A DNA stretch of 63,632 nt, the filler included, from Nemertoderma westbladi (Eukaryota; Animalia; Xenacoelomorpha): NCBI GenBank assembly GCA_032718475.1. It is 3 parts of 3 records of this genome, joined end to end, with 100 filler letters (N's around TTAATTAATTAA, not from the genome) between each part and the next. Parts side by side here need not be neighbours in the genome. Positions count along the whole stretch, not along the records: positions 29,339 to 57,958 come from JAUCBJ010004808.1; 2 more parts are not named here. One strand, given 5' to 3'. Made by a program: the position numbers and the translations under genes. The notes under the pieces are model-generated. The model had not been told where the DNA came from and ran no database searches. It worked only from the letters and a program-made list of their open reading frames with translations. Below, one piece after another: positions 29,482 through 61,111 of the stretch. The stretch's first letter is position 1; the number at the start of each line of letters is the position of its first letter.

Positions 29482-30390
29482 TGTAAAAGCTTTTGCGGAC
29501 ATAACAAGTCATTTTTACGCAATGCGCTGAATACTCTAAAAAGGCCTAAAAGTGTTCAACTACGCGTCGGTCAGAAATTAGAACCAAGATGACTAAATCT
29601 GTCAGCTGATTCTTTGTGTACGTGGAGGTTTCTTTGTTTGGGCCTATTCAGCCAATCAGAGCAATCTTCCCAGCTATGCCAATAGAGACCTACCTGTGGA
29701 AATTGGCGCATGCGCAGTTATTGTTTTTCTGAGAATCCGATTCCTTTCAGGATTCTGTACTAAGTACAGACGTTTCAGACTTTGGCCCACGAACATCTGA
29801 GGGCTGGAGTTATAAGAACGTAAATCTATTAACTTAACACACATCTTAACATTGCATACGAACTTAACTTATTTCATACTTATCATACCGAACTTCATGA
29901 ACACATGCTGACTGTTCACCGCACGGTCTTAATGCTGTTTTATATTGTTGTTAATTGCTGTTTATATTAATGGATGTTATATTTGGAGAATACCGATAAA
30001 TAATCGTAAACCCCTCAACTTTCTTAATTACTGAGGTAAGCAGAAGGGTCTACCGGTAGCAACTGCGACTCAAATTATAGTGGTTTTGTGTGAATTAAAT
30101 GCTATTTCATAATCCCTACGTGTGTCAGTTGCAATCCTCCTTATATATGATCAAATTCAGTGACGGTCGGCAATTTAGTATGAATCAGTGTGAAGTCGTG
30201 TGAAGGTTAATAAAGCATCTCCTAAAGAATGCGCTATTTACGAGATTCCATAGCCACCTAGTTGTGATTAGTGTAAGTCATAACTCTGTTTTATACTTAA
30301 AGCGCCACGTCCCAAAGGAACTGTTAATATTTCCCCGAAAGTAAATATAGTTGTCGGAGATTATATAGTAGTGATCAATCTAATAATACA
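29482..30390 (+). mobile_element. Diverged solo or truncated LTR related to the 32733-44971 element
   Basis: Starts TGTAAAAGCTT; colinear shared blocks GCCAATCAGAGC, GACGGTCGGCAA, CCTAAAGAATGCGC, AGCGCCACGTCC-AAAGGAACTGTTAATATTTCCC, GATCAATC-AATAATACA. Confidence 0.8.
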
Positions 30391-30405
30391 ATACAGTCTA
30401 GAACA

Positions 30406-32732: not shown

Positions 32733-34024
32733 TGTAAAAGCTTCTGTGGGATATAACTGGCCCTTTTGCTTCGCAATCCAGTTTCCCCCCAGGCGCTGGA
32801 ATACTCTAAAAGGCTCTCTAACTATATATATATTCCCCTCGCCCGCAAGGTACCGTTATAGGTGTTTTAACGGACATAAAAGTCATTCTTCTATATACGT
32901 GCTTTGGTGGACATGGTAAGGCAAAAAACCCGCAATGCACCAAATACCTTTACACAGCTTAGCCTTGATGATTCAGATTACGACATCTAACAGCTGGTTG
33001 CTGACATGGAAACGGCCATTGGACACATGGTTCTTTGTTTAGCTTAAGCCAATCAGAGCGATTTTTTCTGTCGATGTGGAGATATTCGGCCGATCATACT
33101 AGGAGTCTTACTGTTTTTGTGATACTGTTGTGTTCCTTCTATCTAGGCCAGGAACACCGGCTCTAGAGTCAATTCGTTTCAGACTTTAGAAGAAACATTA
33201 GTAGGCTTAAGATTATAGAGCGTATAACTGTTATCGGTCCAGTCAAACAGTGTTACCATCTTAACCTACCGTCTTAATGCTATTTACTGTTGTGTTTTGG
33301 TTGAATATTATTATTTGGAGAACATCTATAAAGAACCCAAATTTCCCAATTTTCTTGATACACTACAGGTTAGAGAGACAGGCTACATATAGCGATTGCG
33401 ACTTATATTATCGTGGTTTGTAGTGAGTTTAAGGCTATTTGATAAGCACTACATGAGTCCGTTGCTGTTCTCTTTATATATGATAAAATTCATTGACGGT
33501 CGGCAAATTAGTGAGAGCAGTATTGTGTGTTACCGGTAGTGTGCCTGATTGTGACTGATAACTAAGCATTTCCTAAAGAATGCGCCTCATACGTGAATCA
33601 TAAGCCTTACCGACTTACCGTTGTGATTAGTATAAGTCATATCTCTGTTTACCTAGATAGAGCGCCACGTCCTAAAGGAACTGTTAATATTTCCCGAAAG
33701 TGAATAATATTAGTCAGAAATTATTTATTAACGATCAATCGAATAATACAGTAAGCTTACACTGCAATAATAATCTAAGCCCTCAGAATCCAGTCTCCCG
33801 GGTATATCCAGCGGGTGAATGGACGCGCACTAGGCTGGCTTCTGCTAATGTTGTGTTTATTGGTATTAAATATTTGTCAACTTCTAAAGTCTATTTGTAA
33901 ACCAAAAGACATATAAATTTTGGCAGGTTAAACTGCTAAAGGTCTTCAAAAGCGCGTACAATAACAGTTATTGTCTTTATTGCAGTAAGCAATAAAGTTG
34001 AAAGTACCGGTCGACCGGTAAACC

Positions 34025-34155
34025 TGAACCGGTACTTCTGTAGGTCAGTAGGCCCAACTGCCAGAACCGGTACTGCTGTAGGTCCGTAGGTCCAACTGTC
34101 AGAACCGGTACTTCTGTAGGTCCGTAGGCCCAACTGTCCTAACCGGTACTTCCAG
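34025..34155 (+). repeat. About 38-bp tandem repeats in the BEL leader
   Basis: AACCGGTACTTCTGTAGGTCCGTAGGCCCAACTGTC about 3.5 times. Confidence 0.8.
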
Positions 34156-35926
34156 TATAAGTACATTAGTATTATTCGATTTTAATTATTGTATACCGGT
34201 AGGTCTTAGTATTTAATCAGGGACTGCAGCCCTGGTTTTTTATTGAGATTTTACTTATTTCTGTCGGTTTTATTTACATGTAAGTTAATATTGAGCTGAA
34301 GACGTGTAAGTCTGCTCAGATTGTTCAGATAATTGTAGGCCGGACTGTTGTTAGATTATTGTTGGGTTTGGAGAGATTACGGCGTGTGTAGAGTTTGTCC
34401 GATAGAGTGCCAGTTAGTAAGTTGGGGCAGCCATAGCTGTAAGGTCAATCCCCTCTTAAAGAATAAGTCGTACTACCGTGTTAGAACGCATACTAACTAA
34501 CCATTTCGGAAACTACACGTACTGTAGTTTATTTAGGCTTGATGGTAGTCTGCCAGCATTTGGTTTGTAATTTGTTTGAGTAGTTTGTACGGGTAGCGTA
34601 ATATTTATTATTCAGAGTTTATGCGATTATTCGCAACATTCATGTCCCCAAGTTTATTCCTACAGTAATTGTGTTTGTTACACATACCGTTATAGTTAAA
34701 TTAACCCCGGTACTACACGGGCTGCTTGGCGTAGGAAAAGACTGGTGACTTTGTGCTTCGGTCACTCCAGCAGATGCCGTGGTTCTTTTAACTGTTCAAG
34801 TATATTTAACTACTGATTATTTGTTGTACCAGTACTTGTACCTAATTTAGGGTTTAGTGTACAGTGCTTTCCGAGGTAATTAGTGTGTAGGCAGTATATT
34901 TGTGTTGTAAAGTGGTTAATAGGCACGCTGGATCTGGTAGTCCGCGGTAATTAACTTCTAGGTAGGAACACTCCGTGATACATAACGTAGTACCTATAGC
35001 GATACGGTTATAGGTCGTCAGGCGGTGGTATCTTCCTATCTGGACAACGCAGTGTATTTACTACTACTTATTATTTTCAAATACCGTAGTACCCTGTCCG
35101 TTGTAATAACCAGAATTCTAACCCTTTGTTAGGCTGGTTTGTAGACTTCCTGTAAAATTACCCTAAAATTTCGTACGTAATATTTTTTGTTGTGTTTAAT
35201 TAGAGAATTAATCTCACCCGTATCGTAAGTAATTTGTAGTATTAAGTAACTTAGGTAAATTAGAATAATCTGTTTTAGTGTCCCATAAGTAGCACTCCAC
35301 TGAGAGCGCACAGCTTCCGTGTAGTGACTCTCCCCAGAAATAATAACATTTATTTCAAATATTGACAAAACCCCTTTTTAAACGGGTATATATCTATTAT
35401 AAATCAACTCAAACGATTTATAAATAGTAGGCCTGCCATACAACAACTAGGTCTCAATATCAGTTGGACTACTGCTTAAATAACGGTAATAAAGTAAGTT
35501 AAGGTAACTAAGTAACCCTAAAATATTCAAAAATTCAATTATTCTAAAATAATTGACATACCGGTATTTACCATAGGCTTATTATATTTATTTCTATAAA
35601 TTTGAGCTGAAATCATACCGGTATTCTGTAATTAAGTATCCTAGTTCATTATTCTAGTTCATAATTATACTTATATATACTATAAGTGTAAGCTGCATAC
35701 CGGTATTCACGATAGGCCTATTATATATTTATATATATTTGTGCTAAAATTATATACCGGTACTCTGTGACAAACCTAGTTTACAATACTTATATATACT
35801 ATAAGTGTATACCGGTATTCTAATATACTGTAATAAATTACCGGTACTAGGCCAACGGTCATACTGAATTACTAGACTTGCTTTAACTGTAACTATAGCA
35901 GTAAGCATTCAACTGTATAGCTAAAC

Positions 35927-38900
35927 ATGTCTGACACCCAGCAAAACCTGTCAGACAGTCTAATCGATACAACCATCTGTGACACAGATAGGAGTGTGGA
36001 GCGATTAAGAAAGGAGTTCAGCTCACCTCCTACTGAAAGAAAGGTCATCCCTCCAGTAGTAGTATCAGACCCTAAGCTAATCCAACACCGTAGGTCTATC
36101 ATCGGCACTCGGGCCCAAGTCAAACGGAACCAGGAAGCAGCTGTCCCACAGCAGCAACAGCCTAGTCAAGAAACTTGTTCCCAGCGATCCGATAGCTCCA
36201 GTAGTTCGGATACTGTCGAGCTGACCCCCGAACGCGGATTGCAGATGGCGGCTACAGCCTACTCGGACCCCCTTCTCACCCTTCCTGCCGCAGTGCTAAC
36301 TACTATATTGATTGCGGTGGAGGAACATCAAGCCCATTGGGCGAGAAGTAAGCGAGCGACCCAAGATAATTATGCGGGATACGCCAGGGAAGAATTGATG
36401 TCTATTGTCGAGTCACAATGGATCTTTCCCGGACCCGGACTCCCGCTAGATTTGTCCGAAGCTACTTGGGAAGATATACACAGGATGGGAGTGACTAAAG
36501 ATACAATGGATCCAGCTGTTTGGAAGAGGTCGGCAGCAGGATATGTGCAGGGATTCTTCGGCTCCTTGGAGCGATTAGAAGAACAACTGTTTCGACAACC
36601 TCAAGGACCTCAAGAGCAGGAAGAGCTGCTATATCAAGTACGCGAAAGAACCCTACGCATTAGATTAATCCTATCAGCCTTTGAGGAAACTTCCAAAAGA
36701 AGACAGGACACGTCGCTGCAGGTTGCTGTCAAAACTTGGTTCCAGCGGGTAGGTCTCAAAGTACAAGAAACGGACCAGTGGAAATCCCAGCTGTCTGAGA
36801 GACTAACCTATGAAGAACCAACCGATGCCACCCTTTCTCAAGTGGAAGGCGAAGAGACCGCAGAGAGACCACGAATGAGAGACGCCATCGACATATATCT
36901 GTCCGACTATCAGCGATTCCTAGGAGACGAAGAGTTGAGGAGACGGCTGTCTGGACTTTCCCCTAATAGTGAAGGAACCCAGCGTGTGTTAGACTCAATC
37001 GATGCTGAAATGTTAGCTGCTAACCAAGCTGAGTTTGATGAAAAACTCCGCCTCACTAGAGTCCAAGAAGAACTAGTAAAGAAAAAAAGGATAGAGGACC
37101 GAAAGGCAGCTGCAGTAACAGCGGCAATGGCTGAAGTGGAAGCAGAAAGAAAGGCAGCGGCGGCAGAAGTAGAAGCAGAAAGAAAGGCAGCGGCGGCAGA
37201 AGCAGAAGCAGAAAGAAAGGCAGCGGCGGCAGAAGCCGAAGCAGAAAGAAAAGCGACTGTGGCAGCAGCAAAGGCAGTGGCAGAAGCAGAACAGAGGGCG
37301 TCTGAAGAGACCACACAACTGGAGTTGGAAAATCTTCAAGAGACGCAAGATTGCATAAATAAACAGTTAACTGCTAGTCAAATGCAGATGAGGAGTCGAT
37401 CTACTCCCAAACGCCAGGGATACACATCATCGGAGGAAAGCGAAACCACCGATCCTGAAGGCGGAGGAAATAGATCTCGTCTAAGCAGGCGTAGAAAAAC
37501 ATCTCACCGTCACAAATTGCCTGATTTGCCCCCAGCTGTTAGAAGACAACTAGCTAGCACAGACTTAAGTAGTATAGAACCTACAGACCAAATTATTAAG
37601 GTCAAAAAACTCCCTACTATAGTTGATGAGCCTGAAATAATTAGGCCTGTCGTTCCCAAAGTCACTCCGGTGCTAGAGACCCCTGTACTTCCAGAGCTTA
37701 ACTCTAAGTTCCCTTTACACAGTACTACACTGCCTGTACCCGGTAGAACAGTCCATGAGAATATCCCTGTCCTGGAAGCTGAGAGAGAAATCAAAGATTT
37801 GTCTCCCGTCGTCCCGCGTCAGCCCGCTACAATGTTGGCGACTCCCGCTTCGGCGGTCGAGTGGGTAGAGGAGGGAGGGCGGGGGATGAATCTCCTGCTC
37901 GGACAGATGCAGGAGACTGTCCACCAACTTAAGGGAACAGTAAGGGAAGGTAGGGCAGAATTGCAAGAAGTGCAGCAAAGTATCGCGCTAGAACGCGACA
38001 AATTAGTCAATATACAAAATGGTATATCAATACCCCCTGTAAAATTGTGTCAACCTGTTAGGTCTGAAGTATTACATGCGCAAGGTGTGGAGCCTACACG
38101 CATCTATACTGCTAGTGAAGTAGAAACTCCTATAGCAAACCCTATTAAGGGTGATTATAGACCTGTTATTAATGATATTCCCTATAGACCTGATAATGAT
38201 CCGAGAAATTTATATACCGATAATTCGATATTAAATAACACGATGGCCCAAGAAAGCTTTACGCGTCAGATGGCTAGAACAGAAGCCCGCCAAGCGGTCA
38301 AAGTGGGAGAGATCGTCAAATTCAATGGAGATGAGATGAAATGGTTACCTTTCAATGAATATTACAAAGATAGCATACAAAACTCTGTACTATCTAACGG
38401 AGAGAAACTTAGGTTCCTCATCAAGTGCTTGGAAGGACCTCCCAGGTTAATGGCGTTAAAGTTTATTGGACATCCAGAAGGATTAAGACAAGTTTGGGAT
38501 ACATTAAACATCAGGTATGGTAACAAGGATAACATAGCTAAGTATTTGTATGCAAAATTAGTAGCCCCCCGAGACTTCCTTAGCAGCGGGATTATAGAGT
38601 TTTCCGATGAGATTCAGGAGATCTGTAGACAATTGGACTGGTTAGGTAAGTCTCATGAATATCAGAGTTCCATGGTTATTGGAGCAGTAGTCTCTACTTT
38701 ACCAAAGGGTGGAGTATGTACGCGTTGGGACAAGAAAGTGTTGTACATGAATGAACAACAACGACGAAGCCCTACCATGGCTGATCTCATGTCCTTCTTA
38801 GATGGTGAGGTAAAACTACAACTCATCAAGCAGTCCAGAGAGAAAACATCGGAAAATAAGGTAAGTGAGAAACCCGCTTCTAGGAGAAGAGTAACACCGG

Positions 38901-40585
38901 TGTGTTATACTGACGACGGCGAAAGCCAAGCTTCTCAAGAAGAGGACAGCGGGAAAGACACAGCAAAATATTACTATGACAACAAGACCTATAAAGACGT
39001 AAGTAAATATAAGTCTCGAACCAACGATAGGAGAGAACAGGTAACAACAACTCCTCCTACGTCTCCTAAGAGAATTCACGGAAGAAAGCCCGAAGAAAGA
39101 ACGAGAGTGCATAACGTTACCCAAGGTAAAGTGAGTAACATCAAACCAAAATGTGCGCTGTGCGACGGGCCCCACCGTTTGAGTGCGTGTGCTGAATTTC
39201 TAAAGAAATCCCTTGTAGACAGACGTACAGTCCTGTGGAATAAGCGGTTATGCTATAATTGCCTCAGATCAGGACACCAACGGCGAACCTGTTACTCCGA
39301 CGTAAAGTGTGCAAAGTTTGGCGCGAAACATCACATCTTGTTACACAGTGAGTTCGAACGAGACAACCCGAGTCAGGTAAGTGAGCCCGAACTACATGTC
39401 CAATTCAGTGATGTAAATGACACTGATCAAGAGTCTGAGATGGAAGGATTCTATACTGACGAATTCTCCGACGCCAACGAATCCTGTTACCTAATAAATA
39501 CCTCAGTGTATCGAGCACTTACTTATGAAAAGGACACCGACAATGAGTTCCCCCCAACTACTTTTGCCAGACAACCATCTTGGAAAGCTCCAACTTCCAA
39601 CGTAGGAATCAGAGAATTTCCTGTAGTGCAGGTAAGAGTTCACGGTCCTAACAAAAGTTACATAGTGAACGCCCTCCTTGACTCCGGCAGCACAGGAACA
39701 TTCATCGATCAAGAACTAGCCGAAGATATCTTTGCTGGACAACCCAAATTCCGGACTAAATTGAATATGTCAGGAATTATGCAGGTTTGGAAATCTACCC
39801 TAACGGCAGATTACTATGTAGGTGTGTTGTCCACCCCCCAGGATAAATTAGGAGCACAAGGTATAAGGTCGGTAAAAATGGTGGCTATAAAGAACTTCGC
39901 TACTACCCAAGCAGACCTTTATAATTGGGACGAGGATGAGAGCATCCAACATCTTAAGATACCTCGATTCCAGACAGATTATCCTGGAGTGCAAATACTC
40001 ATCGGCCAAAACGCGCATGAGGCGCTCGAGACATTGGAGAAACGGCCTGCTCAACCGCAGCCACTACAAACCTATGCGGTAAGAACTAGAGTAGGTTGGT
40101 ACTTCACTGGCCCTTCCCGTAGAACTCTCAAAGAGAGATTACCTCAACAACAGGTATACCAAGTAAAGGAATGGGAAGTGGAGAGCAGTGATGTGGACGA
40201 TCCAACTGAGGGAACACCATACTCCTCAGATAATGACGATATTAACTCCAATGTAGATCAATGGAGACATTGCCTTGGGACGATTAGTTCAGCCGACAGC
40301 GCTTCCAGAGGAGCAACTCCTCAAGAACTGATAGATACTCCAGGCTGGTTAGGTGGATCCGACTCCTTAAGTAAAGAAGAAGAAGAATGGCCTCCTCATC
40401 TTACCACGGCGGAGCGTAGACAGGCCAAGGGAGCGGAGAAAGTAACACAACAACTCAATCGCCCAGCTAGTCGTTTATGTTTACTGGAAAGAGACCGAAA
40501 ACTGTCCGGAAACTATGGAAGGCAAGATACTCTTCCTACGACCACTTCCCTAATCCGACAAATATCTAGGGACTCCATAACGTAA
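35927..40585 (+). CDS. BEL/Pao Gag-protease polyprotein with RT/RNaseH/integrase deleted
   Basis: DUF1759-like KFNGDEMKWLPF..EKLRFLIKCLEG; triple knuckle CALCDGPH/CYNCLRSGH/CAKF..HHILLH; protease LLDSGS, ILIGQN, RTRVGW; then only QWRH..ADSASRG..WP and RPASRLCLLE remnants. Confidence 0.92.
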   Translation: MSDTQQNLSDSLIDTTICDTDRSVERLRKEFSSPPTERKVIPPVVVSDPKLIQHRRSIIGTRAQVKRNQEAAVPQQQQPSQETCSQRSDSSSSSDTVELTPERGLQMAATAYSDPLLTLPAAVLTTILIAVEEHQAHWARSKRATQDNYAGYAREELMSIVESQWIFPGPGLPLDLSEATWEDIHRMGVTKDTMDPAVWKRSAAGYVQGFFGSLERLEEQLFRQPQGPQEQEELLYQVRERTLRIRLILSAFEETSKRRQDTSLQVAVKTWFQRVGLKVQETDQWKSQLSERLTYEEPTDATLSQVEGEETAERPRMRDAIDIYLSDYQRFLGDEELRRRLSGLSPNSEGTQRVLDSIDAEMLAANQAEFDEKLRLTRVQEELVKKKRIEDRKAAAVTAAMAEVEAERKAAAAEVEAERKAAAAEAEAERKAAAAEAEAERKATVAAAKAVAEAEQRASEETTQLELENLQETQDCINKQLTASQMQMRSRSTPKRQGYTSSEESETTDPEGGGNRSRLSRRRKTSHRHKLPDLPPAVRRQLASTDLSSIEPTDQIIKVKKLPTIVDEPEIIRPVVPKVTPVLETPVLPELNSKFPLHSTTLPVPGRTVHENIPVLEAEREIKDLSPVVPRQPATMLATPASAVEWVEEGGRGMNLLLGQMQETVHQLKGTVREGRAELQEVQQSIALERDKLVNIQNGISIPPVKLCQPVRSEVLHAQGVEPTRIYTASEVETPIANPIKGDYRPVINDIPYRPDNDPRNLYTDNSILNNTMAQESFTRQMARTEARQAVKVGEIVKFNGDEMKWLPFNEYYKDSIQNSVLSNGEKLRFLIKCLEGPPRLMALKFIGHPEGLRQVWDTLNIRYGNKDNIAKYLYAKLVAPRDFLSSGIIEFSDEIQEICRQLDWLGKSHEYQSSMVIGAVVSTLPKGGVCTRWDKKVLYMNEQQRRSPTMADLMSFLDGEVKLQLIKQSREKTSENKVSEKPASRRRVTPVCYTDDGESQASQEEDSGKDTAKYYYDNKTYKDVSKYKSRTNDRREQVTTTPPTSPKRIHGRKPEERTRVHNVTQGKVSNIKPKCALCDGPHRLSACAEFLKKSLVDRRTVLWNKRLCYNCLRSGHQRRTCYSDVKCAKFGAKHHILLHSEFERDNPSQVSEPELHVQFSDVNDTDQESEMEGFYTDEFSDANESCYLINTSVYRALTYEKDTDNEFPPTTFARQPSWKAPTSNVGIREFPVVQVRVHGPNKSYIVNALLDSGSTGTFIDQELAEDIFAGQPKFRTKLNMSGIMQVWKSTLTADYYVGVLSTPQDKLGAQGIRSVKMVAIKNFATTQADLYNWDEDESIQHLKIPRFQTDYPGVQILIGQNAHEALETLEKRPAQPQPLQTYAVRTRVGWYFTGPSRRTLKERLPQQQVYQVKEWEVESSDVDDPTEGTPYSSDNDDINSNVDQWRHCLGTISSADSASRGATPQELIDTPGWLGGSDSLSKEEEEWPPHLTTAERRQAKGAEKVTQQLNRPASRLCLLERDRKLSGNYGRQDTLPTTTSLIRQISRDSIT

Positions 40586-42212
40586 TAACATATGGAGTGG
40601 GCATGTGACTATATCATTTTATATTTGTTTTTATTTTATATTTATGTATGTATTATTATGTAATTTTATTATAATCGTTTCCTTTAATTTTATTTAGTAG
40701 AATGTTATTTTAGTGATTATTTAGTAGATTAGTGCAATATATTAGTGTTTATTACGTACGTAATTACTTATAATATATTTAGTGTGACGGCGAGAAATAA
40801 TTATTTTTTCTCTTTCCTTACTGTCCGTATCATATTATAAATACGTGACTACAGTAAGATGAAATGTCCGTACTTATTAAAGTACAATAAAGCTCCTACT
40901 ATACTTAAGTATTATTGGTAGGCAGAGTATTAGGAATGCAAAGTTCAGATCCTCGTGTCTCGGCTAAACCAAGCTCTGGGTAGACCTTGGAAACGACTTG
41001 CCTCTTCACACTGACATTGCTTCGTGCGATATTGCTCTTCTACCTTATATTAAATAATACATATAGTAGCGTGATGTCCCTATAACAGTAGCGTAAAACG
41101 CAAATAAATCTGTTAAACCTTTTGACCATCTGTAATTCTAGTCGATCAAGATATCGCGGCACCCACCGATATACTTGAAAGACAAATTCTAGAATCAGTG
41201 GTTAACGTCCCCAGAAAAGTTCTGGAATAAATCGGTGCCCATCTTAAATATTAATTTAATATTTAGTAAAATCTGTAAAATTCAGATCCTTTAAATTTCT
41301 AGTCAATTAAGATATCACAGCACTTACCGATACTCTTAAAGGACAATTGTCATAGAATTAAGGATCCTATGCCCCCAGACCTGCTCTGGAATCAAATTGT
41401 GTCAATTTTAACATCAAATAATAAAATTCACGGGAATAAATTTAAATTCATATTTAAATGAATTTCATAAATTGTCATTTTGTGTAATTTATAACATTCC
41501 CAAAATTCCATTAATTAATAGATCACGGGAGCGGAGATTCATCCTATTGAGTGTATTAGAGTGCGAGAATCTCCAACATATAGTCAATAGCCGATAAAAT
41601 TAATAAAATCATGTATAAAGAGGATATTGACAATTAAAGAATTACTATTAAATAGCATTCCAGATCTGTATGCATGAGAATTACCCTAATTCTACCGCTA
41701 GCTTTCCATAATGTCACCATAGCAACACCCACGCTAGAATTAGAAGCAAGTTAAAAGAACAATAGAAAGCTTGTCACATTGCATAGCATAGAGAATACAT
41801 AGCACACTGTTAGTATCCAAAGATACACAGTAATAACGTGACATTCTGGAAGGCACTGACTAACGGACAAATGGCCTGTATGTGTACAATTGGTGACAGT
41901 TGTGTGGAATTTGTGCGTTTATAGGTGAATGTTACTGCTAAAGTATGTTTACAGTAGCTAGTCGCAATTGTGAAAGTAGCCCAACTCTCCTATAGAAAGA
42001 ACCTAAAGTGGATTCAAGCCTTTGGGACGGACAGTGGAGTGACTTGTGCCGGTTATCGTTGTCGTGCTGTTGCTACATGTTGGCGTAAACACCGCGACGA
42101 CGGTACATCGGCGCTGAGAATCCCACTGTCCGGGGGCGAAGAGAGGTAGGCAGCGACGCCCGCTCGCCTAAACATAAACTCATTACAATATTAATAAACT
42201 CAGATAGCAGAT

Positions 42213-43660
42213 ATGACGGAGTTGATAGAAGATGATCTTGGTATCAGGGAGCGATATACTCTACCTTTACAAGCATTTGTGGATAGCTTGATACGCGGTG
42301 AAACCGATCCAACCATTACGGAGGACGATGGTCGTTATATCGAACCGCCGATGTCCCAAGAGCAACTTACGCGTGAATTCGACTATCGAAATTCACCGCT
42401 CGCTATACGCATCGTAATAGTGCGTATATGGACTTCCTAACTACCGGCCATCCTATCGATTTACATGATACGGACGATGTAGACACCGAAAGGGAAATGG
42501 TTCTATTTAAATATCATACCCAGCGGAGTCGTAACAATAAACCGAGAATAGATCACGAAAATTCTATTCGTAACAGACTGGGAAGACGAACCAATATGCC
42601 TAGAATCTGAGGAGATTCAGCCTATCGCGCCCGGAACAGCGACAACGATTACATCCTAGAATGGTATCAAGGTCCACAGTGTCTCACTGCGTACAATTAT
42701 CGCCATGCCAACTATGTTTCTCGGCAACGTTGTCGGTTATGCGCATCGAGAGACCATGTTACGCCCATGGACACAAACGTCCGCTGTTCCTATTTCCACG
42801 AACAACCGGCGATGGAAATTTATTGCGCGTATTGCAGACTCAATAACTTGCACATTTTTGCGGTTTGCCCTCAATTTATGACTCAATGTCACCATTGTCA
42901 ACTAAAGGGACACGCCAGTTTCGATTGCCCTTTTAATCGCGATTTGGAAAGCGTAGATGAAATGATCACACTACGTTGCATCAGAGCTTGGGAAGTGAAC
43001 GCTGATTTACATTGTGATTCGCGCCATCGCTATTATCCTGGACGCGCTTACGAAGGAATTTATGCGTTCCATCCTTATCTATTCGCTTCTGTCGAACAGA
43101 AATCACGCATATCGAGTTACGAACTACTGAAGCGCGTCGGAGAATGTATTTCAACCAAATTCGTACGCAAATTTCTCAGGAGTGTTAATCCTAGCGACCT
43201 TCATTCCTATAACTTAATCAATTATATCCGTCAGGATCCGGACTATGGAGACTTATTTGTTAACTCACACCCCGAGTTACAGGAAGTATATCGACGGCCT
43301 TACGAATACCGAGCCCGCGAACGCGAGTTGGAAAGAACCATTAAACCCCGGAGGTTTCTAACTGCCTATGGTCCACCCACGGCTCTCGTTCAGACCACTC
43401 GTAAAGGACCCGTAAGAGCGGCTGTCTTAAAACGAGCTCTCAAAGCCGTTAGACCCCTCTCCCCCGACGTTGATGTCAATCAACCCGGTACTTCGACTGG
43501 CGGATACACCGACCATAATCCTACACCCTCTGATGCAATCATATTGCACCCTTCACCCAGGAGTTATAGCCCTCCTTGTAAAGTGGCTCGCCCCAAAGAG
43601 AAAAGGACTCTGGCTAGCTTTAAAAAACTGCGTAAATGCCGTCCGCGCAAGAAAGACTAA
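42213..43660 (+). CDS. Accessory zinc-knuckle ORF of the BEL element (one frameshift, one in-frame TGA)
   Basis: 42428-43660 is one frame broken by TGA 42608-10; CRLCASRDH, CAYCRLNNLHIFAVC, CHHCQLKGHASFDC; basic C-terminus; ends 78 bp before the 3' LTR. Confidence 0.65.
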
Positions 43661-44976
43661 CTGTTTAGAGTATTTACGTATATTAGAAACTGTGATTTTG
43701 TATATTTTATAGACTCAAATCCCATTTTCTGGGAGCGGTGTAAAAGCTTCTGTGGGATATAACTGGCCCTTTTGCTTCGCAATCCAGTTTCCCCCCAGGC
43801 GCTGGAATACTCTAAAAGGCTCTCTAACTATATATATATTCCCCTCGCCCGCAAGGTACCGTTATAGGTGTTTTAACGGACATAAAAGTCATTCTTCTAT
43901 ATACGTGCTTTGGTGGACATGGTAAGGCAAAAAACCCGCAATGCACCAAATACCTTTACACAGCTTAGCCTTGATGATTCAGATTACGACATCTAACAGC
44001 TGGTTGCTGACATGGAAACGGCCATTGGACACATGGTTCTTTGTTTAGCTTAAGCCAATCAGAGCGATTTTTTCTGTCGATGTGGAGATATTCGGCCGAT
44101 CATACTAGGAGTGTTCAGTCTTACTGTTTTTGTGATACTGTTGTGTTCCTTCTATCTAGGCCAGGAACACCGGCTCTAGAGTCAATTCGTTTCAGACTTT
44201 AGAAGAAACATTAGTAGGCTTAAGATTATAGAGCGTATAACTGTTATCGGTCCAGTCAAACAGTGTTACCATCTTAACCTACCGTCTTAATGCTATTTAC
44301 TGTTGTGTTTTGGTTGAATATTATTATTTGGAGAACATCTATAAAGAACCCAAATTTCCCAATTTTCTTGATACACTACAGGTTAGAGAGACAGGCTACA
44401 TATAGCGATTGCGACTTATATTATCGTGGTTTGTAGTGAGTTTAAGGCTATTTGATAAGCACTACATGAGTCCGTTGCTGTTCTCTTTATATATGATAAA
44501 ATTCATTGACGGTCGGCAAATTAGTGAGCAGTATTGTGTGTTACCGGTAGTGTGCCTGATTGTGACTGATAACTAAGCATTTCCTAAAGAATGCGCCTCA
44601 TACGTGAATCATAAGCCTTACCGACTTACCGTTGTGATTAGTATAAGTCATATCTCTGTTTACCTAGATAGAGCGCCACGTCCTAAAGGAACTGTTAATA
44701 TTTCCCGAAAGTGAATAATATTAGTCAGAAATTATTTATTAACGATCAATCGAATAATACAGTAAGCTTACACTGCAATAATAATCTAAGCCCTCAGAAT
44801 CCAGTCTCCCGGGTATATCCAGCGGGTGAATGGACGCGCACTAGGCTGGCTTCGGCTAATGTTGTGTTTATTGGTATTAAATATTTGTCAACTTCTAAAG
44901 TCTATTTGTAAACCAAAAGACATATAAATTTTGGCAGGTTAAACTGCTAAAGGTCTTCAAAAGCGCGTACAGATGC

Positions 44977-50890: not shown

Positions 50891-51310
50891 TAGCTTACTG
50901 AGCCTAAATGTTACTATTTTAATCAAAACGATTTATTTTAACGTATTTTTTGCACTACACCTTTGTACATATTATTCAAATTTTACCTATGCCAGTATAT
51001 ATATGTAGTTTAATTATTAATGACTTTAAAAAAATACTCTATTTTTCCCACTAAAACTGTGTACATAGTACAGTATGTGGCGTTAAAATATTAAATAGTA
51101 ATTTATACAGTTCTTATTTCAAATAACATATTGTTTACATTTGTACTTAAGGCAATTCAATGTATGTCATGTGTCTCGTAATTTAACTGCAAAACTCTTA
51201 GGACACTAATAAACAATATTTGAAGTAGTTCCTCGCCCTGAGCACCGTCGTATGCATAATAAAGGAAGGATGAAATGATCTTTAGGTGCCGCTGTAATTA
51301 TATTATAAAT

Positions 51311-51376
51311 GCCAAATATTTCAACCCAAAATTGTAAATGTGGACAATTACAATTAAACAGGCCTTCTTCAGTGGC
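51311..51376 (-). ncRNA. Minimal hammerhead ribozyme motif in pLTR
   Basis: GCCA-CUGAAGA-A-GGCC...GGUU-GAAA-UAUU-UGGC on the element's sense strand. Confidence 0.7.
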
Positions 51377-51684
51377 TCTGGTACCTAATGTACCTAACTA
51401 CAGAAACTCTACAACACGACCGGACCGAGCAACAGCAGAACAAATAGTACCGGTATCGTATGAAGTACTGCACATACAGTATATGTTATGTCAGAACCAA
51501 TTACTAATTACAAAGCTAGTGGACGTGTTATTAAATGCTAACTACTGTATAAATATCAAAGATCAACCGGGGTTGCTAGCTAGAATGTTGTGTACGTGTG
51601 TATTGGAAAATAAAAGAAATGCTAACTACTGTATAAATATATGAAGGAATTGCTAACTACTGTATAAATTGCACCAAGTTTAGT

Positions 51685-53476
51685 TTACCATCCTTTGTCG
51701 TGGGGCCTACTGTACTGGCGATTAAGTGTAGGTTTTTCCCGTCTGATTAGATATTTTTCCCTGATTTTCCGGTCCGCCCAGTCCCTGCATCTATATCTTA
51801 AAACAATTCTGAAAGGTCCCTGGTAGTTCTTGCACCCTGGATGTTTATCTAGGAAGTGTTCCCCTATCGCCTCCTTCCGGTTGCCATTCCGTACTGAGTT
51901 GCGGTGTTTCATCATGCGGTCCCTAATCCGCCCCATGCTCTCCCCTATGTAATTTTCCTTAATTCCTCTACTCTCACATATCGTACATATTATTTCGTAC
52001 ACTACATTGCGTACTGTACAATTCTTGATGCCGTACCGGCAACAGTAACACTCCACGCTCGGGGGGGAAGGGCACTTGTCGTAAGTGAGGCTAGCCCTAA
52101 CTAGAATTTCTTTCAGTTTAGGGCCGGGGGTGGTCACTAATCTAATGTGGGGGCGTAGTGGGGAGGTGCGAATAATACCCTGGATATGCCGTCGTAGTTG
52201 TTCACCAACGAATGGTATGATTAATGGGACCGGGGAATGGTTAGAGCCTGTGTGTATGGATCTGGGCACTGGGGTGCCGGATTCTATGTTGTGGATAAGT
52301 TTATTAATAGTATGCGCCGGGTAGTCGTTTTGTAGTAGTATGTTACGTACTTTGTGTAGGCTGCGCGTGCGTCCCCCCATAGTTGAACTATTCCTAAAAG
52401 CCCTTTGTATAAATGCCCTAGCAGTGCTGATAATGCAAGACCGTGAGTGGCTACTGTGGAAATTGAGCATAATGCCAACATTACTGGGTTTTATATAAAG
52501 TTCGAAGTCTATGCGTCCAGATGAATTAACCGTAGTTAAGACATCTAAGAATGGGATACATGAATATGATTGTTCCATAGTGTACTTAAGTGAGTCATGG
52601 CATGTATTTAAATATGTGAGGAATTTCTCGAGTTCTTCCTCCCCATGTTGCCATACTGACCACCCATCGTCTAAATATCTAAACCAGCAGAAGACCGACA
52701 GTGGATAGTTATCTAAGTAACTACTTTCCTTCACATGTATATAAATAATGGCGAAAGGCGCCGCTGATCTATCCCCCATACCCAGCCCATCGTTCTGTTT
52801 ATAAAATTGCCCATTGAATCGGAAAAATGAAAATTCCATATATGTCTGTAGAAGTCCATAAAAGTCTGTGATATCCAGCCCATACATATTAATGTCCGCC
52901 TTATGTTCGTTCACAAACCCTGTTACCACCTCTATTCCCTCCCTCACTGGTATATTAGTGTACATCGATTTAATGTCTAAACTAAAAAGAATATCCCCCG
53001 GTTCTAGTGGTTGTATATTATTCACACGTTCCATAAAGTCTGTCGTGTTTTTAAGGCGTTCTGGAACGAACTGTGCAGCTTGTGACAGGATCCTGCTGGT
53101 TAACCATGCCGGTTTCTCCCCCGCTGATCCCGATCTAGACGATATAGGTCTCATTGGAGCTCCAGTCTTATGGGTTTTCGGTGTACCATATAGTTCCGGA
53201 GTCCTGGGGTGAACGCTCCTAAGCGTCGACCCTATTGTGTGAAGTTCTTTCCGACTAAAAATACTCTTAATACCCCCATTAATGTGCGACGTTACTTTAT
53301 GGTTGGGGTTATTCGGAAGTTCCGTATAGGCGTGGGTGTCCGTAATGATGTCATTCGTCATCTTCTCAATGTAGCCGGCCCTGTCCATCACTGCAAATCC
53401 CCCGCTTTTATCAGTCTTTTTAATAATAATGTCTTTGGATTTAGATAGTTCCTTAAGTGCTTTACGTTCTAGTGTA
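51685..53476 (-). CDS. Penelope-type reverse transcriptase plus GIY-YIG endonuclease (N-terminally truncated)
   Basis: KKTDKSG, LYGTPKTHK, SLDIKSMYTNIP, GLGMG, FRYLDDG, PFLDV, NVVYEIIC..YIGES..R..H, REKYLI..LN; the ORF track's first 12 residues come from the inverted pLTR. Confidence 0.93.
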
Positions 53477-53988
53477 GGAATGGCAACCGGAAGGAGGCGA
53501 TAGGGGAACACTTCCTAGATAAACATCCAGGGTGCAAGAACTACCAGGGACCTTTCAGAATTGTTTTAAGATATAGATGCAGGGACTGGGCGGACCGGAA
53601 AATCAGGGAAAAATATCTAATCAGACGGGAAAAACCTACACTTAATCGCCAGTACAGTAGGCCCCACGACAAAGGATGGTAAACTAAACTTGGTGCAATT
53701 TATACAGTAGTTAGCAATTCCTTCATATATTTATACAGTAGTTAGCATTTCTTATTTTCCAATACACACGTACACAAAATTCTAGCTAGCAACCCCGGTT
53801 GATCTTTGATATTTATACAGTAGTTAGCATTTAATAACACGTCCACTAGCTTTGTAATTAGTAATTGGTTCTGACATAACATATACTGTATGTGCAGTAC
53901 TTCATACGATACCGGTACTATTTGTTCTGCTGTTGCTCGGTCCGGTCGTGTTGTAGGGTTTCTGTAGTTAGGTACATTAGGTACCAGA

Positions 53989-54054
53989 GCCACTGAAGAA
54001 GGCCTGTTTAATTGTAATTGTCCACATTTACAATTTTGGGTTGAAATATTTGGC
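53989..54054 (+). ncRNA. Minimal hammerhead ribozyme motif in inverted pLTR
   Basis: Mirror copy: CTGAAGA 53993-99, GAAA 54043-46, stem I GCCA/TGGC, palindromic AAATATTT stem III. Confidence 0.7.
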
Positions 54055-54330
54055 ATTTAGAATATAATTACAGCGGCACCTAAAGATCATTTCATCCTTC
54101 CTTTACTAATAAACAATACAAATACCATTGCCAACGTTTCTCCCATTCAAAATTCATATTTGTCACAGTGCCGATAAGTTACCAGGGGCGATAAAGACCC
54201 GGGAGTGATAAGTTCCCAAGGGACGATAAGGACCAGGGGCGATAAAGGCGCAAGGAGCGATAAGGCTCTACAATCGGTGATTTTCCACATTAAACCCTCC
54301 CACTCTGTTTTCCAAGTTATCATAGTTCTC

Positions 54331-54520: not shown

Positions 54521-56440
54521 AATAATAATAATGATAATAAATGGATTTACAGCTCCACGGTCGAGCCGGGCGCTGAAGGGTGTGAACCATAGAGTGAGAG
54601 ACAGACAGTGGGTAAGTGCACGAAAAATATAGTAATACAATTAAGGATGATCCTTGACAGTTCAGTAGTAGCTATATGTGTTAATACAGAGGCTGCAGGA
54701 ACATGCCAGGTGCCATGTGCACAGGTTATCATCAATATACCTGTGCACAAAATTCTCCCAGTGCTGTAGATCGCTGCGAGCCGCTGCTTTACACCTGCTG
54801 GACTTAATAGATCTGCGGAAGGTGAAAGTCTGTTGGCCAGCCACTGCGAGCGGAACCAGAAGTTCCGGCGCGAGCTAGCCTTGGTTAGCCACGGGAGGTC
54901 GAAAAGTCTGTTAGATCTGGTTGGGCGGTTAGCAGGTGGCGTATGAAAGTTGACGATTGGACGCCAATCCAAATCGAACCGATCATTGATGATGGCAGCA
55001 AGCAAGAGGAGATCGTGCAGTTCCAGGTAAAGGTTGAGGGGAAGAAGTTTAAGTTGGAGGAGTCTGTCTTTATAGGGGCGGTCCGACGACGTCACCCAGC
55101 GCGTGGCCCGGTGTTGTAGCTGCTCGATGAGTTTCATATCGCCGCGGATGGCGAACCAGCACTGGGATGCGTAGGCGACGTGCAGCGCTTCAGCTGGAAC
55201 AAGGCCCGCGTCGCCTTGGCAACCCGCTCGGAGATGTGCGCCGACCAGGAGAGGTCAGTCGACACAATCCGTCCGCGGTCCTTCTCGGAGGTGGCTCGGG
55301 CGATTGTGAACCTGGAGACAGTTTGGTCGGGCGGGCTGTCGCGGAAGACGAGATGGCGGCACTTGTCCTTGGAGAAGGACATGGCGTTGTTAACAGCCCA
55401 GTCGGATAGACGGTCGAGGTCCGCTTGGAGAGGAGTTTGGTCGGAAACCATTGAAAGGGCCTTCATATCGTCAGCGAAGAGAAAAGGGATTGAGTGTACA
55501 AAGCATGTTGGAGTGTCATTGTGGTTGAGGAAGATGATGACGGCCAGCAGGGCACCCTGGGGAACGCCGCTGCCGACCGGAAGCGGACAGGAGGTGGAGT
55601 TTCCGAACCTCGTCATCTGTTGGCGATTCGAAAGGTAGGACTTAATAAATAGAAGCATATTTCCTCTAACACCAATGTCCGACAGTTTTTGAAGTGTGAT
55701 GTTGTGGTCCACTTTATCGAAAGCCTTAGAAAAATCTAAATAGATTGTCTCAATGGTTAATGATTTCTAAGTTGTTTTCTGTACCTTTGTAGACTGCATC
55801 TAAGAATTGAAGCAGTTGTACAGTAGTAGATTTTCGTTGGAGAAAACCGTACTGGGAGCAGTGCAGGCGAGGGGCTAGATGCTGGTAAAGTGGACGAAAC
55901 ACGAGGGATTCGAAGACCTTGGAGATAATGCAGAGGAGGGACACTGGTCTGTGGTTGTCTGTGTACATTTTACTTAGTTTTTTATGGAGGGGAGACAGTA
56001 GAGCGCACTTCCAAAAGTCCGGGAATGTGTTTGTGGCTTTTAGGATGCTGAAAAGAACGTTCAAAGATGGGGCAATGTCTGTTCCGAGAGACTTGAGGAA
56101 AGCTGGTGGAATATAGTCGAGTCCTCGAGATTTGTTGGTCTTTAATTTCGCGAGAACCTCAGAGATCGACTCACAGGAGACATTGTAATCGTCTACGCAA
56201 CCGGGGAAGCTAGAGTGGTCGAGGTGACTGGGTTCGCTTGGTGGGTTGAAGACGGACTGGAAGTACCTGTTAACAGGTCCGCCTTTTCGGGTTTGGTGGA
56301 AGCAGTTTCGTTGCCCCATTTTTGGCGGGATGTTGTTGGTTTTTCTTATTGATTTCAAATACTTGAAAATCATATCGAAATGGGAGTTTTCAAAGGTTAA
56401 TTTTTCATATTCAGACTGCTCCTGGTGTAGTTGGAGGTTG
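54521..56440 (-). mobile_element. CR1-like LINE reverse transcriptase, degenerate and 5'-interrupted
   Basis: KSRGLDYIP, NHRPVSLLCIISKVFE, QYGF, DFSKAFDKVDH, SGVPQG, LFADDMK over three frames; (ATT)n tail 54521-40. Confidence 0.9.
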
Positions 56441-57958
56441 TGTCACGGCTGTAGCATGCCCATCAAACCCCGATTCCAATCTGCAATCATTTATTATAGG
56501 CCTACATTGCTTTCACCAAGAGGAAACATTCAAAGCATTGCTTAAGCCCAATCAGTCGAGGGAATCCCAGATAATAAACTAGCCAATAGCTGATTGGCCT
56601 TGCAATGCACTGAATTCACCTCTATTATCACTCACGTAGATTAGGTTGACAATGTATATATATTAGGTGGAGGGTCCATTTTAGCTTTAGGCCACATAAT
56701 TATTAGTTGTGAAGATTAGTTATTGCTCACTGTTTTATACGCTGCCAAGAATCAATTTGTATTGTTATAGATATACTGTGAATAAACATGAAAGCTTCTT
56801 TTATACTTTATGTTTTCTATTATCAAAGTTGAAGCTATCTGCGGTGTCCCTGTTTCAGGCCTGCAGATAGCTTGGTAACAATACGCGATGACGCTGCGTC
56901 ATATTACAGTTACCAAAAAAACCCACGACTTGGCCTCAGTCGTCACAGTATAAAACATTGTGTCAGACAAAATAATTTTTGAATACAAAATTATCATTTA
57001 ATTATTAATAAATTTTAAATTGAGCAGCTAATCTAGTTTAAACGATTGGTTTCTCCAACAACATTTAACTCTTATCTTCAATTTAATTAATCAAATTTAT
57101 GTAAATTTAAATTGCGTTTAAATTTTAATTTACAACCTAGCGTATAGAACTGTGCCATTATTGTACAGTAGTTTAGATCTATACCATTTATTTACTGAAG
57201 AAGTATGGATGATCGTGATCCCTTATACAGTTTCAGTGAGGGGGAAACAGCTGAAGAAGAAGTCTCAGAGTTCCTCGAGGATTCTAACTTAAATGAAACG
57301 GTAAGTGGCTCTGTAGATTTATCTTTGATTAGTCCCAATAGCCGTCGGAGGGCCCCTGACTCTATTGGTACTAACCAAAGGGACGCAGTACCGCAAATCG
57401 CGCTGTCTTCCAGCAGTACCAGCTTCAAACGAATATTAGGAGGACATAAATCAGCATTTACAAAAAATTATAATATTTTTCTAGCTGGTAGATCGAAATT
57501 TAGTAAAGAAGAGCTAAATAAGTTATATTGTGAGTGTACACAACAAAAATTAGAGATACAGGAAATTTATTCCACAGTCCTCCAATATTTGAGGCAGCAA
57601 CACGCACGCGAGGAAGCTGATAAGGTATTTAACGAATCAGTTTCGCTCATAGCTTCTATGGAAAACAAGATAGCCTCAATGCGTGACGCCATAGGTAGTT
57701 ATGATACGCCAGTGACTTCACGTGTTGACCAAAGGCATCCAAATGTAATTAATCAACCAGCGCAATTAACTGGTGTTGGTTCTGGGGATGAATTTTTAAC
57801 TCCTCCCCCTGTCACTAGAGGTACAGTTACATTTCGAGCGGAAAATTTACCGATTGTACCCCTTTCTGGTAACTCAAACGGAGGATCTTCTTTGTCCTCT
57901 AAGGATACCAGAATCTCTAGAACCTCTCAATTATCAGCTGCTAAACGCCGAACTTTAC
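56441..57958 (+). mobile_element. 5' end of a second, probably BEL/Pao, LTR element cut by the contig end
   Basis: Putative LTR 56441-56947 (TGTCACG..CGTCACA, TATA 56655, AATAAA 56781) starts where the CR1 ORF breaks; ORF from 57205 with KRILGGHKSAFTK and Ser-rich tract resembles BEL Gag N-termini. Confidence 0.65.
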
Positions 57959-58058: not shown

Positions 58059-60112
58059 GGGCTTTTATTGTCAAGTAACTTATAAAGAACTGAATCTGTT
58101 AATAAAATTAAAATAATCTTCCTAACTGGTAGGTAAACTTGTGTTGCAGTACGATTTATTCAACTTATCCCCCCAACGCCACCCATTATATCGGGTTTCT
58201 GTAGACTCATTGTGGAAGGGAGAACGATTCTTCTCGAATATGTAAAACTTGGTTCCCGTTAAATGAAATTATTGATTCGGACGGAATAACTTTTCATTCT
58301 AAAAGTTCCTATTGATTTTTTTCAAAATCCCTTTAAAAGTAAACCTTATAATTACAATCCGTGTCAGCATACCAAATTTCATCGAAATCTGATACAACAA
58401 TTTTTACAGATCAGATCAGCCTGAAGCTGAAAGGGCTACAAAGCTGAGTAAACCAGTTACATTGCAGATCAGTGGCGTCGCCAGGGCGGCTAAGGCGGCC
58501 ATGCCCCCCCCCCCCCCCCTCCCATTATTGTGACAATTTTTTTTAATTCCATATGCCAGGCCGGGCGGGTCAGCTGTCAGCAGCTCAGCACTTAATATAA
58601 ATTAATAATAATCTCATTATTAAAATAATCTATTAGGTTTTAATTGCCGAAGGATATTTTTCGTTTATTTATAAAAATATATATACGGTAAATAAATATA
58701 CAATAATATACAGATAGAAAACCCATAAATTAAGTTTTTACTTTTATTGATTTCTGAATTTTTGACGGACAAACACGCAGACAGACCAAGAGACAGACAG
58801 TTTAGATTTCATCAAATCAGAAAAGTTATATTTTAAATATAATCACAGCCCAGGAAAATCCAATTAATACATATTCAAAATAGTTTGTGCATTTTCTCAA
58901 ATTTTAATGGACAGACAGACATAAGACATACTGTAATAACAGACGACTGACTAACAGCGACAGGCAGATAAAAGTTTAGATTTGGCAAATAGTGAAAACC
59001 GGCATCGTATTTGAAATCATCGGCAAGTGAAACCCCCTTACCAAAAAAAATGGGTGGTGTGGTTTATTTATTTATTTTTATATTTCTATACAGGCAGACA
59101 GACAGACACAGTGACCTCCAGTAATAATACAAATAAAACATGTTCGCTAATGATCCATACACTGACTTGTATCTGAATTCTGACATGTAGGCCTACCGAC
59201 TACCTAATTTTTTACATGTCTGCTTTGAAAAATATGGTAAAATTTTATATTTGAAAAATCCCCCCAAATACAGAAAATTGGCGGGAACGTTTGAAACTCT
59301 CATAACTTCAAAGTTGATTTTCTCAAAACTTTGTTAATATTTGGTGCGACAGGGGGGGAACCTCGACGCAAAACCTGCCTTGGCGAATTAATATCCCGCC
59401 TCAATGTTAAATGATCAATTTAGGGAAAGGAGCAGGTTACAGTGGCACGTTATTTTAACAAAAACAATAAACTAAACACAATAGAACAGGTTACAGTTTT
59501 ATTTTTGAGAGTAATCAGCTGTTATTTGCGTTGACTTTCCCCTGGAGAGGGATGAATTTTTATTGCATCCAGTCCCCCCCCCCCCCCCCCTGTATTTGGT
59601 CATAAGACTGCTAATTTTTAAAACTCATATTGACAACATATTATTGGTTTTGAAATCTGAGTTCACTGTTCGATTCAGCATAAAAATGTTTTTTTGAATC
59701 ATTAAAAAAACAAATTTATTTTTTGTAACCGTAGGTCGGTTTCATGATCAAACCTCGCATATGTTAACATTGTTTAATTTCATTCATTTTGATTAGATGT
59801 GTTAATTTTGAGTCAGCCCCCCCCCCCCCCCACCCCCCCCCCCCTTTTTTTTTGGCACTGGCCCCTCCCCTGGTGAAATCCTGGCAAAGCTACTATTGCA
59901 GATATAAACATAACAATAGATTAAGAAGCTACCTAAAATTGGATAAACATTGCTGTTTAAAGGGAGCTAACTCTTGTGAAAGTTACACTTGGCGGGAAAT
60001 TTGAAATTATATAGCCATTATTATTGCTCTTAAACTTCCATTTATGCCTCATCAAGACGGGTAGAGGCAAAAAATACTGGGCCAATACAAAAACTTAATT
60101 TACCCAAACATT

Positions 60113-61111
60113 ATGTGTGAAACCCAAGATGAACGGCAGCTTCCCCCAGATAATATTAATGCAATGAAAACATTCCTAACACTATTAGTGGATATCCTGT
60201 ATACCACCTGCCACATTATCTTGGTCATTGCCAAACAAGCGTTAAACTCTGTACGCCCGCCGCCAGAGAAACCGTGCGCTGGGCAGGTGGTCCTGGTTAC
60301 GGGTGCCGGGAGCGGGATCGGTCGCGAAATTGGATTAGAGTTCGCCAAACGCGGCGCTCGTCTGGTACTCTGGGATGTCAATCAAAAAGGTAACGACGAA
60401 ACCGTACGGTACATCCTAGAACAATGCCTGCATCAGCGACCTGCTATTTACTCCTATACATGCGATGTTTCTGATCGCGAATCTGTTATGGCCGTTGGTG
60501 AGAAAGTTGTAAAAGATGTCGGGAATGTCGATATCTTGGTGAACAACGCTGGAATCGTTGCAGGTGATTCGCTATTCAAAGCTTCGGCCGAGGCGATAAC
60601 CAACACGTTTACCGTGAATATTATATCTCATTTTTGGACTATTCGCATGTTCGGTCCAGCGATGTTGGCTAATAACCACGGTCATATAATAGAGCTGACA
60701 AGCATCATGGGTTATGCGACCGCACCGCGATTGGTCGACTATTGTAGCTCAAAGTTCGCCGTGGTCGGACTTTGCGAGGCTTTACGGGATGAGTTCCATT
60801 ACCTGGGAAGCGACGGTGTCAAGGTGACATCTGTCTGTCCGGGTCAGGTCTCCACCGGGATGTTTGCCGGCGTGGCTACGCGATTCCCTAGAATGCTGCC
60901 CAATACGTCCCCGTCGGATGTGGCTCGTCTAGCTGTGGAAGGAGCTCTGCGAGACCAGTCTGTGGTATTCGTACCGCGCTTTTTCGCCGTGGTACCGGTA
61001 GTGAGGAGCCTTCTTCCAAGCGAAGTCTGGCCTATATTTGGGGATTTCGCGGAAGTTACCAGGTCTATGGACGGTTTTATTGGAAGGAAATATCACGATC
61101 ATAACCATTGA
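60113..61111 (+). CDS. Short-chain dehydrogenase/reductase, SDR16C type (retinol dehydrogenase / 17-beta-HSD11-like), single exon
   Basis: Hydrophobic N-terminus, VTGAGSGIG, LVLWD, CDVS, LVNNAG, SHFWT, YCSSK, CPGQVSTGMF; intact 332-aa ORF. Confidence 0.95.
   Translation: MCETQDERQLPPDNINAMKTFLTLLVDILYTTCHIILVIAKQALNSVRPPPEKPCAGQVVLVTGAGSGIGREIGLEFAKRGARLVLWDVNQKGNDETVRYILEQCLHQRPAIYSYTCDVSDRESVMAVGEKVVKDVGNVDILVNNAGIVAGDSLFKASAEAITNTFTVNIISHFWTIRMFGPAMLANNHGHIIELTSIMGYATAPRLVDYCSSKFAVVGLCEALRDEFHYLGSDGVKVTSVCPGQVSTGMFAGVATRFPRMLPNTSPSDVARLAVEGALRDQSVVFVPRFFAVVPVVRSLLPSEVWPIFGDFAEVTRSMDGFIGRKYHDHNH

Follow-up and report, generated by a model that had tools for sequence, protein, structure and literature searches.

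The window analyzed here is a 63,632-nt stretch of Nemertoderma westbladi DNA consisting of three contigs joined by N spacers, and it contains two LTR retrotransposons, elements 1 and 2, as well as a third LTR (table 1). The finding reported here concerns element 2 and lies close to the end of the second contig, where this element is inserted into a minus-strand LINE reverse-transcriptase fragment (LINE RT matches at 55137–56442); the copy is truncated by the contig end at 57958, and its 3′ LTR lies beyond that end. Elsewhere, the window includes a 23-bp satellite array (7600–23300) broken by a minus-strand pol ORF of Ty3/gypsy order (16629–20867), a 634-bp inverted repeat with 99% identity (51257–54108) flanking an RT-bearing ORF (51685–53514), and an uninterrupted short-chain dehydrogenase ORF (60065–61111).

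Table 1. Features of elements 1 and 2, in coordinates of the window
Feature	Position	Strand	Basis
Element 1, BEL/Pao deletion derivative, 5-bp TSD GATGC	32733–44971	+	LTRs, DUF1759, polyprotein alignment
Element 1 LTR-internal complement (11 bp) of its own PBS position, 33961–33971	33224–33234	+	6/5000 LTR shuffles reach 11
Element 2 5′ LTR, TG...CA, 507 bp	56441–56947	+	Loose contig ends at 56441 and 56947/8
TATA tract	56655–56666	+	Sequence; 34 nt ahead of observed 5′ end
First exon (17 nt) of spliced transcript	56689–56705	+	X4 record 30, one contig
GT-AG intron, 435 nt, containing pairing site, poly(A) signal, U5, and PBS	56706–57140	+	X4 record 30 junction; GT 56706–07, AG 57139–40
Segment predicted to pair with leader 57021–57034, adjoining primer helix	56713–56729	+	Pair probabilities 0.72–0.94 in the 56689–57140 fold
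Candidate self-primer segment	56731–56740	+	Exact complement of 56948–56957; +43 to +52 counted from 56689
Rival 10-bp complement of 56943–56952, spanning the LTR/PBS edge	56772–56781	+	Folding, sequence
AATAAA poly(A) signal	56781–56786	+	Sequence; R predicted to end ~20 nt further on
U5 hairpins named in the earlier note, three	56832–56943	+	Sequence, folding
PBS position, flush with LTR end, without TGG	56948–56957	+	Contig ends, sequence
Second exon, ATG at 57205, phase-0 GTAAGT donor at 57301	57141–57300	+	X4 record 30; contig then leaves the stretch
Gag-position ORF start, 251 codons, ended by contig edge	57205–57957	+	Without detectable homolog

The limits of the element 2 LTR were determined by mapping contigs from four runs (X1–X4) onto positions 56000–57950. 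Contigs from X2, X3, and X4 join the LTR at 56441 from one common sequence with a purine-rich, PPT-like end. The contigs of element 2 show both a TG...CA LTR and a purine tract immediately ahead of the 3′ LTR, features that are not diagnostic because other LTR superfamilies have both. Among the 24 of 46 loose contig ends listed, the point of divergence lies behind 56947 for contigs of X1–X3 and behind 56948 for those of X4, and the letters past this exit differ from run to run. These exits bear out the LTR end at CGTCACA (56947) proposed in an earlier note on this sequence; the case that the note itself had set against its proposal, an LTR end at 56957 followed by a degenerate TGG-type site, has no exit among the same 24 of 46 ends, and neither does position 56731. 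Several of the contigs stopping at 56947 represent sister subfamilies with 4–10 letter differences, and X4 record 28 has zero differences. Sister families have only the U5 end in common (56820–56947), one high-depth contig family joins the LTR at 56868, and one contig runs on with TGG past the LTR end, representing either flanking sequence or a tRNA-type site.

The first ten bases past the LTR, GTATAAAACA (56948–56957), are the exact reverse complement of TGTTTTATAC (56731–56740) within the LTR; the 10-bp match opens at the first base after CGTCACA (offset 0), and there is no Watson–Crick extension on either flank. This complementarity, which the earlier note had described, is real and non-random: when the element 2 LTR was dinucleotide-shuffled 5000 times, a complement of at least 10 anchored at the first post-LTR base arose 11 times, 900 other leader start points of the element gave none, and 2 of 500 shuffled PBS sequences equaled the match. 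No TGG lies within 5 nt of 56947, and therefore no usable tRNA site is found at this LTR end as judged by TGG. The pairing site is located 41 nt upstream of AATAAA; placement of the match at the poly(A) cleavage site was considered and rejected because of this upstream location. For the three U5 hairpins that had been described as strong, the arm pairs are present (56832/56863, 56888/56896, and 56925/56938), but the second has a 1-nt loop with at most 6 of 7 pairs possible.

One X4 contig (record 30) maps to 57141–57300, and the 40 letters upstream of this match comprise an adaptor tail followed by 56689–56705. The tail matches the SMARTer template-switch oligo sequence given in the available portion of PMC9245221. 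Because it combines an adaptor tail with a GT-AG junction, this contig represents cDNA, despite the "DNA?" entry for its run. It at least shows that transcription begins at or before 56689, and together with the 56705/57141 splice this means that splicing takes out the pairing site, U5, and the PBS together. Based on this one contig, transcription likely starts at 56689, with the pairing site 42 nt downstream; we consider this start no more than likely because the 5′ end lacks the extra untemplated G of a cap tag and because template-switch start tags lie near the TSS in only 48% of cases (PMC9245221, available portion). The spliced contig runs ~860 nt beyond 57300, outside the stretch, and is in frame after 32 codons; the sequence past 57301 is likely a downstream ORF of element 2. 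Runs X5–X7 yielded two 164-nt pieces and no splice junction, and X4 coverage is absent at 56990–57121, which in itself is no proof of anything.

The two LTRs of element 1 (32733–33960 and 43739–44971) are identical at 1225 of 1226 aligned bases, with two indels, and its ORF encodes a DUF1759 Gag, zinc knuckles, and a protease, with RT, RNase H, and integrase missing in alignment with full BEL/Pao polyproteins. A 5-bp target-site duplication is typical of BEL/Pao. Element 1 is a BEL/Pao element and hence outside the Tf1/sushi chromovirus group. Its own PBS position is matched by an 11-bp segment within its LTR, a length that 3 of 900 leader start points also reach, and this pairing has the geometry of that in element 2 with different bases. 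The description of the two sequences as unrelated holds at the DNA level, with an LTR alignment score of 28 against a shuffle maximum of 40. The rule in the available portion of PMC6317226 (an LTR complement of at least 10 bp starting 0–5 bp past the LTR) applies to both window elements. A search of element 2 for a primer assembled by splicing gave none (best 6 nt), and in element 1 such a primer is no better than the contiguous match. The predicted start (~33188) and donor (~33201) of element 1 derive from its non-significant LTR alignment with element 2. A donor-like GT at 33369 is conserved in the third LTR, and an acceptor-like AG is found at 35920, 6 nt before ATG. Judging by sequence features, element 1 too may splice out its priming module.

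The third LTR (29484–30395) is 72% like that of element 1 over 29971–30393 and seems to be interrupted near 30395 by a LINE; its counterpart of the element 1 pairing site differs, and the PBS of this LTR lies outside the window. The 3-kb 3′ region of element 1 past the main ORF (40600–43738) contains a purine tract and then TG at ~40605, near 41883 a TGG-type site preceded by TGTACA, and an ORF of 349 codons (42611–43660) with a weak zinc-knuckle match (E 0.013), and possibly consists of captured pieces of other LTR elements.

A homolog search with the element 2 ORF, which comprises only 251 N-terminal codons, gave no match (best E 0.12–0.16; unnamed clusters, 0.90–0.91); the pol region of this copy would fall past the end of the contig. 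We consider element 2 likely to be BEL/Pao because its PBS (GT, then A-rich) resembles the PBS of four of the relatives analyzed below (L034, L049, L063, and L065), because the distance from pairing site to poly(A) signal is similar to that in relatives, and because it neighbors element 1.

Thirty BEL/Pao polyproteins were aligned and used to fetch 79 metagenome loci, and the full set comprised 80 loci; scans of viral contigs yielded one locus, which is without a 5′ LTR. Paired repeats were found in 20 of the 43 loci checked for them, and 7 of these have an LTR end fixed by both copies (the end of L022 was set by eye, and L003 and L022 end in ATA). Four of the seven firm-end loci match their own LTR by 11–15 nt, one contiguously and three only across a GT-AG intron of 76–186 nt with a pyrimidine tract, and each of the four beats 500 of 500 shuffled PBS sequences; the remaining three carry TGG-type sites and do not match their LTR. 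TGG-type sites without an LTR match were identified in L025, L032, L051, and probably L056. Non-cognate pairs drawn from 13 LTR/PBS sets never reached 10 bp (0/152), and the PBS letters vary widely among families, each matching its own LTR only. Of eight loci whose ends were scanned, four show an 11–12-nt spliced match (L034, L049, L063, and L068, the last belonging to the L065 family), matches that are subject to selection bias, with 53–90 ends tried for each of L049, L014, L034, and L012; no match was found at any end scanned in L012 and L014, and L005 and L030 pass only with loose splice signals. These match counts leave out L007, L023, L046, and L062.

In the spliced relatives the first exon contributes only 4–9 nt of pairing, in all self-type cases pairing begins 0–3 nt from the LTR end, and in six relatives the pairing site is located 13–55 nt upstream of the poly(A) hexamer. 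A quick RT–RNase H tree, which includes 50 of the 80 loci and neither window element, places four tRNA-type loci in one clade (support 99) and spreads eight self-type loci over other branches; most of its rows are unlabelled, and origins are not countable from it. In the LTR of L063 (~336–344), the donor responsible for the primer match is preceded at 8 nt by a pyrimidine tract and AG, and this sequence arrangement suggests a micro-exon or a trans-splice acceptor.

In folding of the element 2 leader, which the earlier note had called for, region 56700–56975 is more stable than 197 of 200 shuffles (z −2.81), but its minimum-energy fold uses 56772–56781/56943–56952 and not the proposed helix. 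As duplexes, the primer helix has an energy of −8.3 kcal/mol versus −11.7 kcal/mol for this rival, one pair of which is disrupted by a G>A at 56780 in the main X1 contig. For RNA starting at 56689, the probability of the primer helix is 0.47–0.57 at four of the seven 3′ ends tried (57040–57140) and 0.00–0.02 for RNA ending at 56970, 56990, or 57210. For starts at 56729/56731, it is ~0.8 with an end at 56990 and at most 0.10 for six other ends (0.00–0.09 when folded to 57040–57140). The predicted helix 56713–56729/57021–57034, chosen after the fold was seen, is the best among 96 LTR windows, and 0 of 500 leader shuffles were as stable; a corresponding upstream/leader helix was sought in element 1 and six relatives, and none was found (best 29/500). 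Tf1-like flanking "pretzel" duplexes, counted as perfect matches only, are 4–6 bp in element 2 (reached by 120–200 of 200 shuffles) and 6–8 bp in element 1 (36–196 of 200). These predicted folds favor an internal primer only slightly.

The earlier note had interpreted the arrangement as a self-priming mechanism shared by both elements, an interpretation that our results partly support: pairing is cognate-specific in the two window elements and in the fetched BEL/Pao loci, but the pairing site is not at the sole transcript start seen (56689). We infer that element 2 self-primes reverse transcription with a probability of roughly 0.75, summed over three variants. The variant we favor, at somewhat short of even odds, is priming from the internal R segment 56731–56740 of an RNA starting at 56689. 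RNA escaping the 56705/57141 splice would retain the pairing site (+43 to +52), U5, and the PBS, and bases just upstream of the pairing site would pair with the leader, closing a domain in which 56731–56740 anneals to 56948–56957. As in Tf1, cleavage by the element's own reverse transcriptase/RNase H would fall after 56740, the new 3′ end at 56740 would be extended through U5 and R, and strand transfer would take place via the ~65 nt of R that reach from the cut to the poly(A) site. RNA that has been spliced is stripped of the entire priming module and would serve as mRNA only.

We favor internal self-priming because the LTR end is firm and the PBS flush with a match of low chance frequency (11/5000), because element 1 has the same geometry in other letters (6/5000), because four of seven firm-end BEL/Pao loci self-pair and none of the 152 non-cognate combinations attains 10, and because the 41-nt distance from site to poly(A) signal resembles the 13–55 nt of the six relatives. 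That the primer would be internal is argued by the position of the 56689 start 34 nt after the TATA tract, by the higher helix probability from 56689 than from 56729/31 in RNA extending to 57040–57140, and by the upstream/leader helix (0/500 shuffles). Against it, the start comes from one contig, marks spliced RNA, and is without the extra G; folding is fragile across 3′ ends, and in duplex form the rival helix exceeds the primer helix in stability; and neither element 1 nor six relatives yielded the upstream/leader helix, with pretzel duplexes at chance level.

An alternative that we regard as unlikely is Tf1-like priming from the 5′ tip, in which genomic RNA starts at a second site at ~56729–56731 and the 56689 start yields spliced mRNA. 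Such RNA would begin past the 56706 donor and so escape that splice, and 56726–56731 reads CTCACT, an initiator-like motif; this motif is present nine times in the element 2 LTR, however, and the contigs of runs X1–X7 include no transcript end at 56729–56731 (24 of 46 loose ends listed for X1–X4). Likewise, the primer helix belongs to the minimum-energy fold of 56729–56990 with a probability of 0.8, yet falls to at most 0.09 once RNA from 56729/31 extends to 57040. The 4–9 nt of first-exon pairing in spliced relatives would suit very short first exons, and Tf2 separates priming-competent from incompetent RNA by alternative starts (PMC5341516, available portion).

Less probable still is that the pairing is structural, acting as a splicing, packaging, or translation switch that hides the LTR edge, while priming there falls to a host RNA, for instance an internal fragment of a tRNA. 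The second 10-bp helix does compete for 56943–56952, half-tRNA primers are known in Ty1/copia lineages (PMC6317226, in part), and the tRNA site at the LTR end was judged by TGG; however, the PBS letters that vary widely by family match only their own LTR, and in all self-type cases pairing starts 0–3 nt from the LTR end, the required place of a primer 3′ end. There is a slim chance that element 2 self-primes not with the 5′ copy of the segment but with its counterpart in the 3′ R region or on a second packaged RNA. With the site 41 nt before AATAAA, the segment is predicted to occur twice per genomic RNA, and at 42 nt from the cap it is without special 5′-end geometry, but the predicted local fold places the 5′ copy beside the PBS. 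In the established mechanism of retroviruses, primer position sets the LTR end. A misplaced LTR end (56957, or a 227-bp repeat with the 10-bp inverted repeat at its limits) with a degenerate TGG-type tRNA site, or a chance match, is very improbable: 56958–56967 does agree in 9 of 10 letters with the site motif given in the earlier note, of tRNA-Leu type, and both 10-mers begin with TG or end with CA, but contigs enter at 56441 and exit at 56947/8, with none at 56957 or 56731 (24 of 46 ends listed), a site 11 nt away and without TGG cannot account for an end at 56947 because of where the primer must lie, and 11 of 5000 shuffles argue against chance.

According to the available portions of the papers cited here, Tf1 is a demonstrated case of self-priming, and Tf1 relatives and one copia lineage are predicted ones. 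In Tf1, the primer consists of the RNA's first 11 bases, with the RNase H cut between bases 11 and 12 (PMC7175516), and "pretzel" duplexes flank the pairing (PMC10085805). Element 2 resembles Tf1, Tf2, and Tj1 of the Tf1/sushi group (Ty3/gypsy chromoviruses) in having no tRNA site and in pairing a 10–11-nt segment of its own LTR with the bases right past the 5′ LTR (PMC7175516, PMC4600332, PMC10085805, each in part). Unlike in Tf1, its pairing segment lies 42 nt downstream of the sole start observed, which belongs to spliced RNA, its flanking duplexes are at chance level, and its priming module lies within an intron; unlike in the Tf1/sushi group, the neighboring element with equal geometry is BEL/Pao and no chromovirus. 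Plant TAR (Ty1/copia) and Tcn1 (Ty3/gypsy) are alike in that self-priming was predicted by the same rule from sequence only (PMC6317226, in part), whereas here the host is an animal, the context is BEL/Pao, and the fetched relatives often need an LTR intron removed for a match. Element 1 shares TG...CA LTRs, a purine tract before the 3′ LTR, the 5-bp TSD, and the Gag-protease layout with tRNA-primed BEL/Pao, unlike which neither window element has the TGG-type site without an LTR match seen in L025, L032, L051, and probably L056.

No description of BEL/Pao self-priming was found in the literature searched, whose scope left most subscription journals outside and which included the available portions of PMC6317226, PMC3601003, PMC4600332, PMC5341516, PMC6934838, PMC5445492, PMC7175516, PMC6088434, and PMC10085805; the available portions of PMC554778 and PMC3118150 make no mention of the primer, PBS, or tRNA terms searched. 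Supplementary PBS tables or Repbase or GyDB entries may already record such sites.

More broadly, many BEL/Pao lineages might prime with an internal R piece under splicing control, such that a choice between folding and splicing would sort element 2 RNA into genome or mRNA and in relatives the primer would take shape only on removal of an LTR intron; we put this forward tentatively, as a doubtful generalization. The transcript 5′ end in the window suggests that an RNA's opening bases are not the only place from which a primer can come. If self-priming is true of these elements, a third LTR superfamily would replicate without host tRNA, PBS-based annotation would overlook self-primed elements, and control of priming by tRNA fragments would be inapplicable to them.
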